Part shown: positions 4,953-43,919 of the stretch, in pieces
How positions within the stretch are numbered: the stretch's first letter is position 1
Layout: each line of letters begins with the position of its first letter
DNA from: Escherichia coli
Lineage (GTDB): Bacteria; Pseudomonadota; Gammaproteobacteria; Enterobacterales; Enterobacteriaceae
Reading direction: 5' to 3' (one strand)
Length of the DNA stretch: 64,000 bases
Assembly: GCF_009931435.1 (NCBI RefSeq)
Contig: NZ_CP043414.1
Translations under genes and position numbers: made by a program
The notes under the pieces: generated by a model
What the model was told of the DNA's origin: nothing
What the model saw: only the letters and a program-made list of their open reading frames with translations
Database searches by the model: none

Positions 4953-5534
4953 ATGGCGGTTCAAAAGAATGTTATCAAAGGCATACTGGCAGGTACGTTT
5001 GCGCTAATGCTCAGCGGTTGTGTCACTGTGCCGGACGCCATTAAAGGCAACAGTCCCACGCCGCAACAAGATTTAGTTCGGGTAATGAGTGCGCCGCAGC
5101 TGTACGTTGGTCAGGAGGCACGCTTTGGCGGCAAAGTGGTTGCGGTACAAAACCAGCAAGGGAAAACCCGCCTGGAAATTGCCACCGTACCGCTGGACAG
5201 TGGAGCCAGACCGACGCTGGGAGAACCTTCTCGCGGTCGCATTTATGCCGATGTGAACGGTTTTCTGGATCCGCTAGATTTTCGTGGACAATTGGTCACG
5301 GTAGTTGGACCAATCACCGGTGCGGTTGACGGCAAAATCGGCAACACGCCCTATAAATTTATGGTGATGCAGGTAACGGGTTACAAACGTTGGCATTTAA
5401 CCCAGCAGGTGATTATGCCGCCTCAGCCGATTGATCCATGGTTTTATGGCGGTCGTGGCTGGCCCTATGGCTACGGTGGATGGGGCTGGTATAATCCCGG
5501 CCCCGCGAGAGTACAAACTGTTGTAACTGAATAA
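4953..5534 (+). CDS. yeaY: Slp-family outer-membrane lipoprotein YeaY
   Basis: 193-aa ORF with lipobox LSGC signal peptide. Confidence 0.85.
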
Positions 5535-5555
5535 TTGCTTGTTTTTAAAGAAAAA

Positions 5556-5590
5556 GAAACAGCGGCTGGTCCGCTGTTTCTGCATTCTTA
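5556..5590 (+). terminator. Rho-independent terminator downstream of yeaY
   Basis: Hairpin gaaacagcgg-ctggt-ccgctgtttc followed by a T-rich tract; overlaps a FadR-like motif. Confidence 0.5.
5563..5579 (+). promoter_or_regulatory. Putative distal FadR operator of fadD
   Basis: GGCTGGTCCGCTGTTTC resembles FadR consensus (CTGGTC-GA-TGTT); about 87 bp upstream of the second site, matching the two-operator architecture known for fadD. Confidence 0.4.
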
Positions 5591-5649
5591 CGGTAAAGAT
5601 AAAAATAAATAGTGACGCGCTTCGCAACCTTTTCGTTGGGTAATTATCA

Positions 5650-5666
5650 AGCTGGTATGATGAGTT
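5650..5666 (+). promoter_or_regulatory. Putative proximal FadR operator of fadD
   Basis: AGCTGGTATGATGAGTT, FadR-like half-sites, 73 bp upstream of the fadD TTG start. Confidence 0.45.
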
Positions 5667-5738
5667 AATATTATGTTAACAGCATGTATATCATTTGGGG
5701 TTGCGATGACGACGAACACGCATTTTAGAGGTGAAGAA

Positions 5739-7424
5739 TTGAAGAAGGTTTGGCTTAACCGTTATCCCGCGGACGTTCCGACGGAGATCAACCCTGACCG
5801 TTATCAATCTCTGGTAGATATGTTTGAGCAGTCGGTCGCGCGCTACGCCGATCAACCCGCGTTTGTGAATATGGGGGAGGTGATGACCTTCCGCAAACTG
5901 GAAGAACGCAGTCGCGCGTTTGCCGCTTATTTGCAACAAGGGTTGGGACTGAAGAAAGGCGATCGCGTTGCGTTGATGATGCCTAATTTATTGCAATATC
6001 CGGTGGCGCTGTTTGGCATTTTGCGTGCCGGGATGATCGTTGTAAACGTTAACCCGTTGTATACCCCGCGTGAGCTGGAGCATCAGCTTAACGATAGCGG
6101 CGCATCAGCGATTGTTATCGTGTCTAATTTTGCCCACACTCTGGAAAAAGTGGTTGATAAAACCGCCGTTCAGCACGTTATTCTGACCCGTATGGGCGAT
6201 CAGCTATCCACGGCAAAAGGCACGGTAGTCAACTTCGTTGTTAAATACATCAAGCGTCTGGTGCCGAAATACCATCTGCCAGATGCCATCTCATTTCGCA
6301 GCGCACTGCATAACGGCTACCGGATGCAGTACGTCAAACCCGAACTGGTGCCAGAAGATTTAGCTTTCCTGCAATATACCGGCGGTACCACTGGTGTGGC
6401 GAAGGGCGCGATGCTGACTCACCGCAATATGCTGGCGAATCTGGAACAAGTTAACGCGACTTATGGGCCGCTGTTGCATCCGGGCAAAGAGCTGGTGGTG
6501 ACGGCACTGCCGCTGTATCACATTTTTGCTCTGACCATTAACTGCCTGCTGTTTATTGAACTGGGTGGGCAGAACCTGCTTATCACTAACCCGCGCGATA
6601 TTCCGGGGTTGGTAAAAGAGTTAGCGAAATATCCGTTTACCGCGATAACCGGCGTTAACACCTTGTTCAATGCGTTGCTGAACAATAAAGAGTTCCAGCA
6701 GCTGGATTTCTCCAGTCTGCATCTTTCTGCAGGCGGTGGTATGCCTGTTCAACAAGTGGTGGCTGAACGTTGGGTGAAACTGACCGGACAGTATCTGCTG
6801 GAAGGTTATGGCCTGACCGAGTGTGCGCCGCTGGTCAGCGTTAACCCGTATGATATTGATTATCATAGTGGTAGCATCGGTTTGCCGGTGCCGTCGACGG
6901 AAGCCAAACTGGTGGATGATGATGATAATGAAGTACCACCGGGTCAACCGGGTGAGCTTTGTGTCAAAGGACCGCAGGTGATGCTGGGTTACTGGCAGCG
7001 TCCGGATGCTACCGATGAAATCATCAAAAATGGCTGGTTACACACCGGCGATATCGCGGTGATGGATGAAGAAGGATTCCTGCGCATTGTCGATCGTAAA
7101 AAAGACATGATTCTGGTTTCCGGTTTTAATGTCTATCCCAACGAAATTGAAGATGTCGTCATGCAGCATCCTGGCGTACAGGAAGTCGCAGCTGTTGGCG
7201 TACCTTCCGGCTCCAGTGGTGAAGCGGTGAAAATCTTCGTAGTGAAAAAAGATCCATCGCTTACCGAAGAGTCACTGGTGACCTTTTGCCGCCGTCAGCT
7301 CACGGGCTACAAAGTACCGAAGCTGGTGGAGTTTCGTGATGAGTTACCGAAATCTAACGTCGGAAAAATTTTGCGACGAGAATTACGTGACGAAGCGCGC
7401 GGCAAAGTGGACAATAAAGCCTGA
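5739..7424 (+). CDS. fadD: Long-chain fatty acid--CoA ligase
   Basis: ORF 5673..7424; start set at in-frame TTG ([13 protein letters not shown]...) for 561 aa; AMP-binding motif [12 protein letters not shown]. Confidence 0.85.
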
Positions 7425-33736: not shown

Positions 33737-34009
33737 ATGAATCTTGATGACATTATCAACAGCATGACGCCTGAGGTATACCAGCGTTTGTCGACAGCCG
33801 TTGAACTGGGTAAGTGGCCAGATGGCGTTGCGCTGACCGAGGAACAAAAAGAGAACTGCCTACAGCTGGTGATGCTGTGGCAAGCCCGCCATAATACCGA
33901 AGCACAGCATATGACAATTGACACACATGGTCAGATGGTTATGAAGAGCAAACAACAGTTAAAAGAAGATTTTGGTATCTCAGCAAAGCCTATTGCCATG
34001 TTTAAATGA
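33737..34009 (+). CDS. yeaC: DUF1315 protein YeaC
   Basis: ORF 33692..34009; start set at MNLDDIINSM (90 aa). Confidence 0.8.
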   Translation: MNLDDIINSMTPEVYQRLSTAVELGKWPDGVALTEEQKENCLQLVMLWQARHNTEAQHMTIDTHGQMVMKSKQQLKEDFGISAKPIAMFK

Positions 34010-34177
34010 TTGAATTATTCAGCTTTTTGAGTCTGTTATTAAGTGCGAACAAAAATACTTGTTTGACGTCTTGATTGTTCGATTTAGCGGTTGATAGGTT
34101 AAATGCAACACTGACGAGTATAACCTGGCCTACGATGTCAATGAGGAAATGTAGGCCAGAGATGTATTCAACTAATA

Positions 34178-35846: not shown

Positions 35847-35977
35847 GATATTGATATGAATGATATCGAAAGAGCAAAAGTATATACGTGAGGGGCAGCG
35901 AGCGCACCTGGATACTCTGTGGATATGAGAAAAGTCCGGCAGAACGGAGGGATTAGTGTCCCGCCGGAGAAAAGTGG

Positions 35978-36700
35978 TTAATCCTGCAACGCATAGGTTA
36001 CGGTGGTTACTACGCGTACCGTTTTATTAATCGCCGTAGGATCATCTTCATCACTGCCACTGGCGAAGATCTGGAACACGCCTTGTGAGGCATCGCTAAT
36101 TGACCCCACCTGGCTACCTGAGTCCGTTGCAAATTGTAATGCTGCGTTGCGTGCATCTTTGGTGGCGGCGGCAATCATCTCAGCGCGCAGTGCGCCAATA
36201 CCATTAAAGCGATAGGCGACTTTGCTCTCAGCGATAGCGCCCTCCGTAGCGACTTGCAGTTCGTTTAATTTCGCGACGACTTTTTCGACAGCAGCAACAT
36301 TATGGGTTTTTATCGTCACTGACCCGTCTGCGTTATAGCGTGGCATTGTGGGATCATCTTTCAGATAAAAGGAATCTGTTCGCTTGCTTGTCCATTGGCC
36401 CAGGGTTATCTCTTTCTCGTTAATCCCCTGAGCATTGAGTTCGGCAACAATTTTTTTCTGCGCGTCTTCCAGTTTCGGGAACAGTTCGCCGGGAATATTA
36501 CCCTTAAAGTTAATCGCAATTGTTAATTCTGCCGTATCTGCGCGAACTTCTTTTTCAGAAAGCCCACGCACATTTACATAACGGTTATTGGTTTTTAAAT
36601 GTTTAACACCATCGCCAACAAAATAACCACAGGCGCTAATCCCCAGTCCGAGGACGATAGCGGCAATTAAAGAGGGGGCCTTATTCACTGATGACTCCAT
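35978..36700 (-). CDS. SIMPL/DUF541-like (YggE/BP26-like) exported or membrane-anchored protein; not expected between ansA and sppA in K-12
   Basis: ORF 35978..36790; probable start at Met31 (MESSVNKAPSLIAAIVLGLGISACGYF, hydrophobic signal/anchor) or at in-frame GTG 36688, which has GGAG 6 nt upstream. Confidence 0.6.
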   Translation of the reverse strand: MESSVNKAPSLIAAIVLGLGISACGYFVGDGVKHLKTNNRYVNVRGLSEKEVRADTAELTIAINFKGNIPGELFPKLEDAQKKIVAELNAQGINEKEITLGQWTSKRTDSFYLKDDPTMPRYNADGSVTIKTHNVAAVEKVVAKLNELQVATEGAIAESKVAYRFNGIGALRAEMIAAATKDARNAALQFATDSGSQVGSISDASQGVFQIFASGSDEDDPTAINKTVRVVTTVTYALQD

Positions 36701-36803
36701 ATCAGATGCTAAATGAGCAAGGGAATGTAGTGGAGAGAGGGAGTGAAAGACAGTCCGATTCAGGAGTGTGGCCGACAGCATATCGGCCACATTTTTGCAG
36801 GAT

Positions 36804-40536: not shown

Positions 40537-42492
40537 ATGCGGTTGTTTATTGCCGAAAAACCGAGTCTGGCGCGCGCCATTGCTGATGTCCTGCCCAAAC
40601 CGCACCGGAAAGGCGATGGCTTTATCGAGTGCGGTAATGGCCAGGTGGTGACCTGGTGTATCGGTCACCTGCTTGAGCAGGCGCAGCCAGACGCCTACGA
40701 CAGTCGCTATGCGCGCTGGAACCTGGCCGATCTCCCCATTGTCCCGGAAAAGTGGCAATTACAGCCACGACCCTCCGTGACCAAACAACTTAATGTGATC
40801 AAACGCTTCCTGCATGAAGCCAGCGAAATCGTTCACGCCGGGGACCCGGATCGCGAAGGACAATTGCTGGTGGATGAAGTGCTGGACTACCTGCAACTGG
40901 CACCGGAAAAGCGCCAGCAGGTACAGCGTTGTTTGATAAACGACCTGAACCCGCAGGCGGTTGAGCGGGCGATCGATCGTCTTCGCTCCAATAGCGAGTT
41001 TGTACCACTGTGCGTTTCTGCGCTGGCGCGAGCACGAGCCGACTGGTTATACGGCATCAATATGACCCGCGCGTACACCATTCTCGGTCGTAATGCGGGT
41101 TATCAGGGCGTGCTTTCCGTGGGACGCGTGCAGACGCCCGTGCTCGGGCTGGTGGTGCGCCGCGATGAAGAAATTGAAAACTTCGTGGCTAAAGACTTCT
41201 TTGAAGTCAAAGCGCATATCGTGACACCTGCCGATGAGCGGTTTACCGCTATCTGGCAACCGAGCGAAGCGTGTGAACCGTACCAGGATGAAGAAGGGCG
41301 CTTGTTACATCGTCCGCTGGCGGAGCATGTAGTTAACCGCATTAGTGGTCAACCGGCTATTGTCACCAGCTATAACGATAAACGGGAATCAGAATCCGCG
41401 CCGCTGCCGTTTTCGCTTTCGGCGTTGCAGATTGAAGCGGCAAAACGCTTTGGTCTGAGCGCGCAGAATGTGCTTGATATTTGCCAGAAGCTGTACGAAA
41501 CGCACAAGCTAATCACTTATCCGCGTTCCGATTGTCGCTATTTGCCAGAAGAACATTTTGCCGGACGCCACGCGGTGATGAATGCTATCGGCGTCCATGC
41601 GCCGGATCTGTTGCCGCAACCAGTGGTAGATCCAGATATACGCAACCGCTGTTGGGATGACAAAAAGGTCGATGCGCACCACGCCATCATCCCGACCGCG
41701 AGGAGTTCTGCCATCAACCTGACGGAAAACGAGGCGAAGGTCTATAACCTGATTGCTCGTCAGTATTTGATGCAGTTCTGTCCGGACGCGGTGTTCCGCA
41801 AGTGTGTTATCGAACTGGAAATAGCCAAAGGCAAATTTGTCGCTAAAGCCCGTTTTCTAGCTGAAGCAGGCTGGCGCACGCTGTTAGGCAGCAAAGAGCG
41901 CGATGAAGAAAACGACGGCACGCCACTGCCTGTGGTGGCGAAAGGCGATGAGTTGCTGTGTGAAAAAGGTGAAGTGGTAGAGCGGCAAACCCAGCCGCCG
42001 CGCCATTTTACCGATGCAACACTGCTTTCGGCGATGACCGGGATCGCGCGCTTTGTGCAGGACAAAGATCTGAAAAAGATCCTTCGTGCCACCGATGGTC
42101 TGGGGACAGAAGCGACTCGCGCCGGGATTATTGAACTGCTGTTCAAGCGAGGCTTCCTGACCAAAAAAGGGCGCTATATCCACTCCACCGACGCCGGAAA
42201 AGCATTATTCCATTCGCTGCCAGAGATGGCGACGCGACCGGACATGACCGCGCACTGGGAATCGGTGCTGACGCAAATCAGCGAAAAGCAGTGTCGCTAT
42301 CAGGACTTTATGCAACCGTTGGTGGGGACGCTGTATCAGTTGATTGATCAGGCCAAACGTACGCCGGTGCGGCAGTTTCGCGGCATAGTGGCTCCAGATG
42401 GCGGAGAAGGAAATAAAAAGACTTCATCACGTAAGCGAGCAGCGAAAAAAAGCCCGCCATCAGCAGAGGCGGGCAGTGGAGTGATAATGTAA
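40537..42492 (+). CDS. topB: DNA topoisomerase III
   Basis: ORF 40480..42492; start set at [14 protein letters not shown], 4 bp after the selD stop; basic C-terminal tail. Confidence 0.9.
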
Positions 42493-42515
42493 TGCTCTGA
42501 TGCAGTCAGTTTTCG

Positions 42516-42560
42516 TAGGCCAGATAAGGCGTTCACGCCGCATCTGGCATAAACGCCTGA
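42516..42560. repeat. REP (repetitive extragenic palindromic) element between convergent topB and gdhA
   Basis: gtaggccagataaggcgttcacgccgcatctggca, classic REP consensus. Confidence 0.55.
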
Positions 42561-42575
42561 AACGGCGCTAATGAC

Positions 42576-43919
42576 TTAAATCACCCCCTGCGCCAGCATC
42601 GCATCGGCAACCTTCACAAAACCGGCAATGTTCGCGCCCTGCACGTAGTTGGTTTGCTCACCTTCACCACCATGCTCAACACAGGCATGGTGGATATCCA
42701 GCATGATGTGATGCAAACGTGCGTCAACTTTCTCGGCTTTCCAGCCCAGGCGCGCAGCGTTTTGCGCCATTTCCAGGCCGGATGTAGCTACGCCACCAGC
42801 ATTAGCCGCTTTACCCGGTGCAAACAGTACGCCTGCCTGCTGGAACAGTTCAGTCGCTTCGATGGTGGTCGGCATATTTGCCCCTTCGGCGACGGCTTTA
42901 ACGCCATTGGCGATAAGCTGATGCGCGGCGTCTACATCCAGTTCGTTCTGGGTGGCGCAAGGCAGGGCGATATCAACCGGTACAGACCACGGCTGTTGGC
43001 CTTCGAGATAGACCAGGCCAAATTCTTTGGCGTAATCTGCCACTCGACCATCGCGGCTGGCTTTGATTTCGATAAGACGTGCCAGTTTCTCTTTAGTGAA
43101 TCCGCTTTCATCAACGACAGTGCCACTGGAATCTGACGCAGTAATCACACGGGCACCAAATTCCATCGCTTTTTCGATAGCGTACTGAGCGACGTTGCCG
43201 GAGCCAGAAACGGAAACGCGCATCCCTTCAAAACCCATACCGTGGCGTTTTAGCATTGCTTCTGTGAAATAAACCAGACCGTAGCCGGTTGCTTCCGGGC
43301 GAATAAGACTGCCGCCAAAAGAAAGCCCCTTACCGGTGAAGACGCAGGCGGTATTGTTGGAGAGCTTTTTCATCATCCCCGCCATAAAGCCGACTTCACG
43401 ACCACCAACGCCGATATCACCTGCCGGAACGTCGGTATCCGCGCCCAGGTGGCGATACAGTTCAGTCATCAGGGCCTGGCAAAAACGCATCACTTCACCT
43501 TCGCTTTTTCCTTTCGGATCGAAATCGCTGCCACCTTTACCACCGCCCATCGGCAGGGTAGTCAGGGCATTTTTGAAGGTTTGCTCGAAGCCGAGAAATT
43601 TGAGAATGGAGAGGTTAACTGACGGATGGAAACGCATACCGCCTTTGTACGGGCCGATGGCGGAGCTGAACTGCACGCGCCATGCACGGTTGACCTGTAC
43701 CTGGTTGCGATCGTCAACCCATACCACGCGAAACTGGATCACGCGCTCCGGTTCAACCAGACGCTCCAGTAATGACATTTGGCGATATTTTGGATTTTGT
43801 TCAAGAAAAGGCCAGAGTGTGGTCATTACTTCACGAACGGCTTGCGCGAACTCGGTTTGATTCGGGTCGCGCTTTTGGACATGGTTGAGGAATGACTCCA
43901 GAGAATATGTCTGATCCAT
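42576..43919 (-). CDS. gdhA: NADP-specific glutamate dehydrogenase
   Basis: 447-aa ORF MDQTYSLESFLNHVQKRDPNQ... Confidence 0.95.
   Translation of the reverse strand: MDQTYSLESFLNHVQKRDPNQTEFAQAVREVMTTLWPFLEQNPKYRQMSLLERLVEPERVIQFRVVWVDDRNQVQVNRAWRVQFSSAIGPYKGGMRFHPSVNLSILKFLGFEQTFKNALTTLPMGGGKGGSDFDPKGKSEGEVMRFCQALMTELYRHLGADTDVPAGDIGVGGREVGFMAGMMKKLSNNTACVFTGKGLSFGGSLIRPEATGYGLVYFTEAMLKRHGMGFEGMRVSVSGSGNVAQYAIEKAMEFGARVITASDSSGTVVDESGFTKEKLARLIEIKASRDGRVADYAKEFGLVYLEGQQPWSVPVDIALPCATQNELDVDAAHQLIANGVKAVAEGANMPTTIEATELFQQAGVLFAPGKAANAGGVATSGLEMAQNAARLGWKAEKVDARLHHIMLDIHHACVEHGGEGEQTNYVQGANIAGFVKVADAMLAQGVI

Follow-up and report, generated by a model that had tools for sequence, protein, structure and literature searches.

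The short REP-bearing topB-gdhA spacer of an Escherichia coli genome: probably an ancestral-type allele of a multi-allelic site

The convergent genes topB and gdhA of Escherichia coli K-12 enclose a further gene, ynjI, and the question arises what it means when another E. coli genome has little more than a REP element at the same place. This situation is encountered in a 64,000-nucleotide stretch of contig NZ_CP043414.1 (assembly GCF_009931435.1), here called the window. An earlier note, made from the letters alone, had placed ynjI between these genes in K-12, reported its absence from a gap of 83 bp between the two stop codons and interpreted the REP-filled gap as a recombination scar. The K-12 layout and the measurement are both borne out. 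According to the sequence and the list of open reading frames, the topB stop codon ends at 42492 and the complementary gdhA stop codon starts at 42576, leaving 83 bp without ynjI. In K-12 (strain MC4100) ynjI (1041 bp, 346 amino acids, on the topB strand) does lie at this site and is followed by two REPs in a spacer of 1284 bp rather than of about 80 bp. With K-12 YnjI as query, tblastn against the 64-kb window yielded no hit below E = 0.007 and none at the site. The interpretation as a scar fares differently, and most of the following is concerned with it.

The features of the locus, in positions of the window, are these:

40537 to 42492, plus strand: topB (DNA topoisomerase III), 651 amino acids, intact, from the list of open reading frames
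42373 to 42492, plus strand: haplotype-specific C-terminal tail of topB, the left portion of the segment in which the alleles differ
42445 to 42474, minus strand: terminator-like hairpin for the gdhA transcript inside the topB coding tail, from a terminator scan, folds and stem conservation
42493 to 42575, no strand: convergent intergenic spacer of 83 bp, the "empty" type-I allele
42515 to 42549, minus strand: complete Y-type REP (palindromic unit), from sequence match, fold and orthology with E. albertii
42550 to 42575, plus strand: BIME linker, 5' stump of a second REP and AATGAC, from alignment to E. albertii and to loci L007 and L008
42576 to 43919, minus strand: gdhA (NADP-specific glutamate dehydrogenase), 447 amino acids, intact, from the list of open reading frames

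The predicted TopB is 100% identical to WP_001235791.1 of E. coli 2020CK-00188 and the predicted GdhA is 100% identical to the annotated protein of the same strain. A promoter scan of the 83-bp spacer found no promoters.

The sequence GTAGGCCAGATAAGGCGTTCACGCCGCATCTGGCA at 42515-42549 of the spacer has the reverse complement TGCCAGATGCGGCGTGAACGCCTTATCTGGCCTAC, which is a canonical Y-type REP. REPs of this type follow the consensus of an imperfect palindrome of about 35 nt, GCC(G/T)GATGCGGCG...CGCCTTATC(C/A)GGCCTAC, and the minus strand of the window conforms to it over 42515-42549, wholly outside the genes and between the topB and gdhA stop codons. A canonical REP had been announced at 42516-42560 by the earlier note; its class was correctly recognized and its extent was not, the quoted span being the REP plus 11 nt of linker. 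None of 100 shuffled sequences yielded a REP match. A hairpin of 7+4 bp is predicted by MFE and centroid folds alike, and the fold of the spacer has z-scores of -2.3 (plus strand) and -3.3 (minus strand). The element belongs to a dispersed multicopy family, as a 100%-identical 35-mer and 96%-identical 46-mers are found at unrelated loci in other E. coli genomes and queries containing the REP match a median of 2-4 places per E. coli genome; within the 64-kb window there is a single copy at up to three mismatches. The REP-derived Rfam family naRNA4 (RF02564) scored 36.2 bits, below its gathering score of 59.5, and this sub-threshold match reflects the REP content of the family only. The Rfam scan of 41.5-44.5 kb returned no other RNA families.

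A second REP in the opposite orientation has been reduced to the 16-nt 5' head CGCCTGAAACGGCGCT at 42554-42569, which forms a small 4-bp hairpin in the fold. In E. albertii, where the second REP is complete (TGCCTGATGCAACGCTTGCGCGTCTTATCAGGCCTAC), the linker and the head of that REP align with linker and stump of the window; the same stump is present at L007 and L008. A BIME in the strict sense consists of two complete inverted REPs with a short linker. Such a pair is found in the orthologous spacers of E. albertii and Citrobacter sp. Awk 4, and the partner in the window is the 16-nt head; the window spacer is a decayed BIME with one complete REP and the head of a second.

The gene that occupies this place in K-12 has several features of its own. 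K-12 YnjI matches Pfam DUF1266 (PF06889) at 1.8e-25, and the GC content of ynjI is 41-43% compared to 53-55% for its neighbours. BglJ-RcsB activates the gene, and H-NS and/or StpA have some direct or indirect part in its regulation (PMC3950696). Low GC content and an influence of H-NS/StpA are features typical of acquired DNA. The YnjI family is tiny and confined to the topB/gdhA site, where all relatives at 91%, 80% and 68% identity reside. The 91%-identical ynjI belongs to Escherichia sp. MOD1-EC7003 and the 80%-identical one to a Pseudocitrobacter faecalis contig from the Hadza gut (L094), while the P. faecalis type strain (L024) has no ynjI though its flanks are 99% identical to those of that contig. 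The 68% figure refers to the protein encoded at 5001-6032 of several E. coli contigs (L089-L093), and either an unusually fast-evolving gene or an old allele could account for it. Aligned over the whole locus, ynjI included, the DNA of these contigs is 94.5% identical to K-12 despite the 68% identity of the proteins. Across E. coli, Escherichia sp. MOD1-EC7003 and Pseudocitrobacter the divergence of ynjI is about that of its flanks, which argues that ynjI itself is old. PADLOC gave no family match that would mark YnjI as a defence protein. A full-text literature search on the population distribution of ynjI found nothing, and DUF1266 was treated only incidentally.

The occupancy of the site was surveyed in 5426 complete E. 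coli genomes. The presence/absence comparison proposed in the earlier note identifies ynjI as a variable accessory gene with 3506 carriers, missing from about 35% of complete E. coli genomes. It is contiguous with topB and gdhA in 3469 of the 5426 and so resides, in E. coli, at this site alone. Insertion sequences have entered the site in a few genomes. The two flanking genes are adjacent and the site is "empty" in 1516/5426 genomes, ST131 included, and an island encoding an Hsp70 and a J-domain protein takes the place of ynjI in another 369/5426, including UPEC 536, ATCC 25922 and clone D. The spacer type of the window is rare, its 117-bp allele-specific segment being found in identical form in 17 of the 5426. 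The absence of ynjI here is an ordinary accessory-gene polymorphism, and the element in the gap is of an already known kind.

Which of the states is older can be judged from other species. Species-representative genomes were scanned with TopB and 80 loci were listed, a set that does not contain E. fergusonii, E. marmotae, E. ruysiae or the E. coli representative/type strain. Among these matches, topB and gdhA are adjacent and convergent without ynjI in at least about 55 Enterobacteriaceae species outside Escherichia, in genera including Citrobacter, Salmonella, Enterobacter, Kosakonia, Kluyvera and Pseudocitrobacter. Those spacers that were inspected closely are 11-147 bp long, and many of them contain REPs. 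The ynjI-less Escherichia among the matches listed are E. albertii, Escherichia sp. E1V33 and a lineage of about 90% identity labelled E. coli SCPM-O-B-8794; the spacers of all three align with that of the window from stop codon to stop codon, including the same REP and its flanks, and the window spacer resembles that of Citrobacter too. The E. albertii spacer carries an array of three REPs, of which the window retains REP1 and the head of REP2 in the alignment. The empty spacer of the ST131 type corresponds to the REP3 portion of this array. To the right of ynjI, K-12 aligns with the array from the REP1/REP2 linker through REP2 and REP3. On these alignments all spacer forms could be derived from one BIME array, the ynjI segment taking the place of REP1 and of the left spacer. 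REP1 is absent from all ynjI-positive alleles examined. REPs are located at the right-hand junction of the ynjI segment; a REP/BIME-associated rearrangement at the site is plausible. A gain or replacement on the K-12-type haplotype, rather than a loss in the window, is the most likely polarity.

The difference between the alleles extends into topB. Over the last 120 nt of the gene, the window and K-12 are 67-70% identical in two 60-nt bins, compared to 92-100% upstream, and BLAST homology between them breaks at 42463. In the same two bins the window tail is 77-92% identical to other ynjI-less alleles. The divergence of about 30% between the window and K-12 tails rules out a simple deletion as the cause of the allele difference. 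The last 60 nt of the K-12 tail are 92% identical to the tail of Pseudocitrobacter sp. L022, the core genes being only about 80-88% identical, and L022 combines the K-12-type tail with a K-12-type REP pair and no ynjI. Its tail and REP pair suggest the exchange of a segment between genera, and its arrangement shows that a clean loss, or an empty type-II site, does occur. Judged from these comparisons, the window and K-12 forms appear to be old alternative haplotypes. That topB tail haplotypes are common to several genera may be of interest to specialists. In E. albertii NBRC 107761 (L009) the topB frame is cut short by a stop codon after residue 624 (about 6151-6231), with the usual tail codons continuing in frame downstream. 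Either a real truncation or a sequencing error may be responsible; if the truncation is real, the topB tail is dispensable.

The 83-bp gap is best regarded as an ancestral-type "empty" allele of a multi-allelic site and not as the remnant of a ynjI deletion, with a probability of roughly 0.75. The recombination scar envisaged in the earlier note, read as a deletion, has only partial support. REPs do lie at the junctions, but the reading is not borne out by the adjacency of topB and gdhA in about 55 species outside Escherichia, by the collinear spacers of ynjI-less relatives, which share REP1 with the window, by the lack of REP1 in K-12 or by the divergence of the topB tail; the low GC content and one-site family of ynjI and the 1516 empty sites among the 5426 genomes likewise leave it unsupported. 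The polarity is thereby corrected: the older form is that of the short REP spacer, and K-12 as the reference has a derived or alternative haplotype, which means that K-12-centred comparisons should not score a deletion here.

A probable course of events can be outlined. A REP array like the three-REP spacer of E. albertii would have decayed to the REP of the window and the head of a second. K-12-type strains carry an alternative haplotype of about 1.4 kb, comprising the 30%-divergent topB tail, a decayed terminator hairpin and a topB terminator of its own, and bringing along the AT-rich, H-NS-influenced ynjI and a different REP pair. These two haplotypes and a third, with an HscC-like Hsp70 and a J-domain/Sel1 protein, would all be old and would have been swapped by homologous recombination through the conserved flanking genes. 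Exchange mediated by the flanks would explain why other Escherichia species and Pseudocitrobacter show the same polymorphism.

At the RNA level, the spacer probably serves as a shared 3' untranslated region of the convergent topB and gdhA. Becerril et al. in 1985 and Merino et al. in 1987 reportedly found that deletion of a gdhA-distal REP lowers gdhA mRNA stability. The REP hairpin of the window may protect the 3' ends of both the topB and the gdhA mRNA, and gdhA transcription would then stop at a second hairpin and its T7 run inside the topB reading frame. More generally, REPs are documented as mRNA stabilisers, as terminators or attenuators and as protein-binding sites (PMC3333891).

The candidate for this stop was found by a terminator scan of the gdhA-sense strand at 42474-42445 and reads GCCCGCC-TCTGCTGAT-GGCGGGC-TTTTTTT, with a 7-bp all-G/C stem, a 9-nt loop and T7. 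By its sequence it is a putative Rho-independent terminator on the minus strand, a GC-rich stem-loop followed by a T run, and it sits within the codons of the TopB tail, at 18-47 nt from where the topB reading frame ends. The hairpin is recovered in folds, and the whole gdhA 3' region has a z-score of -4.5. A comparison of 16 ynjI-less alleles (Escherichia, Citrobacter, Pseudocitrobacter and Intestinirhabdus) shows minus-strand pairing for 99.1% of stem cells, and the one-sided stem changes are without exception (8/8) G-U wobbles on the minus strand and mismatches on the plus strand. Double compensatory changes do not occur in the stem among these 16 alleles, and the independent events are few. 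The strand asymmetry is only suggestive of an RNA-level role in gdhA termination. An embedded gdhA terminator would explain the conserved KKSPP...AG motif of the TopB tail. The distal arm of the hairpin is decayed in K-12-type tails, which have their own hairpin and T8 terminator after topB. A decay of the terminator in the wake of ynjI insertion was considered as a further argument on polarity and set aside as only suggestive: the ynjI-positive P. faecalis contig has an intact hairpin and the ynjI-less L022 a decayed tail.

It is conceivable, if rather unlikely, that the empty haplotype reached this lineage recently, the allele itself being old. An ancestor with ynjI would have lost the gene to an imported block of 14 kb or more that came from a different lineage of E. 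coli. This history is favoured by the near identity of window positions of about 34-48 kb to 2020CK-00188 (0-2 mismatches per 2 kb), the flanks of that block differing by 1-2%, by the rarity of the window-type spacer (17/5426) and by a divergence from K-12 of 4-9% at 40-59 kb versus 2-3% to the left of 40 kb. However, 2020CK-00188 could equally be the recipient of the shared block, and strains closest to the window elsewhere (e.g. 2013C-4282, WL297 and E200086) also have the window-type spacer, which fits vertical inheritance. The region reads as a mosaic with a recombinant history, and a recent import of the whole haplotype block into the lineage of either the window or 2020CK-00188 is possible. 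Two further differences lie within this stretch. At 34005-34173 the 9.2-kb ydjE-ydjL sugar-utilisation cluster, which K-12 and 2020CK-00188 have between yeaC and pncA, is absent and about 167 bp are found instead. At 35932-36767 ansA and sppA are separated by an additional gene of about 800 bp, where K-12 has only 47 bp; its counterpart in 2020CK-00188 is annotated as a SIMPL-domain protein.

A broader proposal, which must be called doubtful, treats the site as a long-lived trans-genus cargo site whose ancient haplotypes are maintained and exchanged between Escherichia and Pseudocitrobacter, the cargos being pieces of an atypical-Hsp70 module like hscC-djlC-ybeU that acts as a conflict or stress system under balancing selection. 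The alternative cargos are the DUF1266 protein YnjI, of which no fewer than four deeply diverged alleles exist, and an HscC-like Hsp70 accompanied by a J-domain/Sel1 protein. The latter make up the third allele, which in E. coli strain 361 (L005, 570-4506) is a 3.9-kb island with its own, different topB tail and encodes an Hsp70 43% identical to HscC and a protein with a J domain and Sel1 repeats. Rapid divergence, presence/absence variation and mutual exclusivity would together indicate such a system. If the proposal is true, it provides a handle on the function of DUF1266 proteins. The possibility that the island is a defence system was tried as well; PADLOC returned weak partial matches only (PDC-M61B at 3.5e-4 and PtuA over 43 residues), which were not taken as evidence. 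In six loci of the species comparison (L034, L047, L048, L057, L059 and L071), 1-8 kb of unrelated cargo follow directly after topB, mostly between topB and gdhA, and look from the first residues like a TRAP transporter, porin/PTS genes, MFS and LysR genes, an Hcp-like gene and a prophage integrase. The 3' junction of topB seems to be a general insertion hotspot in Enterobacteriaceae.

According to the deletion account, a K-12-type arrangement existed in this lineage until recombination between REPs removed ynjI, with one REP left behind. K-12 does have REPs immediately to the right of ynjI, the L022 haplotype without ynjI makes a loss within the K-12 type possible, and partial deletion is exemplified by strain JNEC-KY203, in which IS1 truncates ynjI. 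A 15-nt identity, CATAAACGCCTGAAA, also links window positions 42548-42562 with the K-12 sequence spanning the ynjI stop codon. The account is nevertheless improbable: the REP that should have been left behind is REP1, which all ynjI-positive alleles examined lack, the REPs of K-12 are missing from the window, the two alleles diverge by about 30% at the end of topB (last 120 nt), and ynjI-less Escherichia species have spacers collinear with that of the window, which is also similar to that of Citrobacter. An ancient loss of ynjI is possible. As decisive evidence of a ynjI remnant, the 15-nt match was rejected, as the REP followed by the CATAAACGCCT motif occurs at unrelated loci and the match aligns with the BIME linker of ynjI-less species; it is best read as common BIME linker sequence. 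A shared left junction, TTTCGT, found in the window and in K-12 just before REP1 and the ynjI segment, respectively, was discarded too, being too short and not kept in the ynjI-positive L010. Finally, an independent arrival of the REP, mobilised by a RAYT transposase into an already empty spacer, could appeal to the variation from 0 to 3 REP copies in this spacer among species and to the known mobilisation of REPs (PMC3333891), but it is highly improbable, as the REPs of the window, L007, L008 and E. albertii agree in position and orientation and have homologous flanks on both sides. A comparable pair of an inverted and a forward REP is found in Citrobacter sp. Awk 4.

The ancestral-type allele and its alternatives can be compared with known systems. 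One of these is ynjI (b1762) itself, encoding the DUF1266 inner-membrane protein of K-12; the gene stands precisely where the window is empty and has the transcriptional direction of topB. The cargos of the site belong to the same families as the K-12 cluster hscC-djlC-ybeU / djlB-ybeR / ybeQ-ybeT, in which an atypical Hsp70, J-domain co-chaperones, DUF1266 and Sel1 proteins are encoded. That cluster contains two genes of the DUF1266 family, to which YnjI belongs; BLASTP of YnjI against YbeR and YbeU gave no similarity beyond the common Pfam domain. The J/Sel1 protein of the island combines a DjlB/DjlC-like J domain with YbeQ/YbeT-like Sel1 repeats. Unlike the hscC cluster, no single topB/gdhA allele seen joins DUF1266 with the Hsp70/J pair. 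A multi-allelic hotspot with cargos from the HscC/DjlC/DUF1266/Sel1 neighbourhood may again be of interest to specialists. A mobile element with a known preference for REPs is met at this site as well. In E. coli GPEC1337 (L004, 3001-4514) IS1397 is inserted in the REP loop of an ST131-type empty spacer, with a short TTT/GTTT duplication. This insertion fits the published specificity of IS1397 for REP loops, as cited in PMC3333891 and PMC1525189; the window is free of IS1397.

With the REP/BIME elements of E. coli the window spacer has many features in common. Its REP is a 35-nt imperfect palindrome of the Y type with terminal GTAG/CTAC, is extragenic and located between convergent genes, is predicted to form a stable hairpin, has near-identical genomic copies and is accompanied by a partner of opposite orientation in the orthologous E. 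albertii spacer; it departs from them in that the partner in the window itself is a 16-nt head only. A close parallel is the REP pair downstream of gdhA in K-12, which flanks the 3' end of the same gene and belongs to the same element class. Its members, TGCCGGGGGCGCTGCGCTTGCCCGGCCTAC and GTAGGCCTGATAAGCGTAGCGCCATCAGGCA, are, however, other copies and match REP2 and REP3 of E. albertii, whereas the window has retained REP1, which is lacking in K-12.
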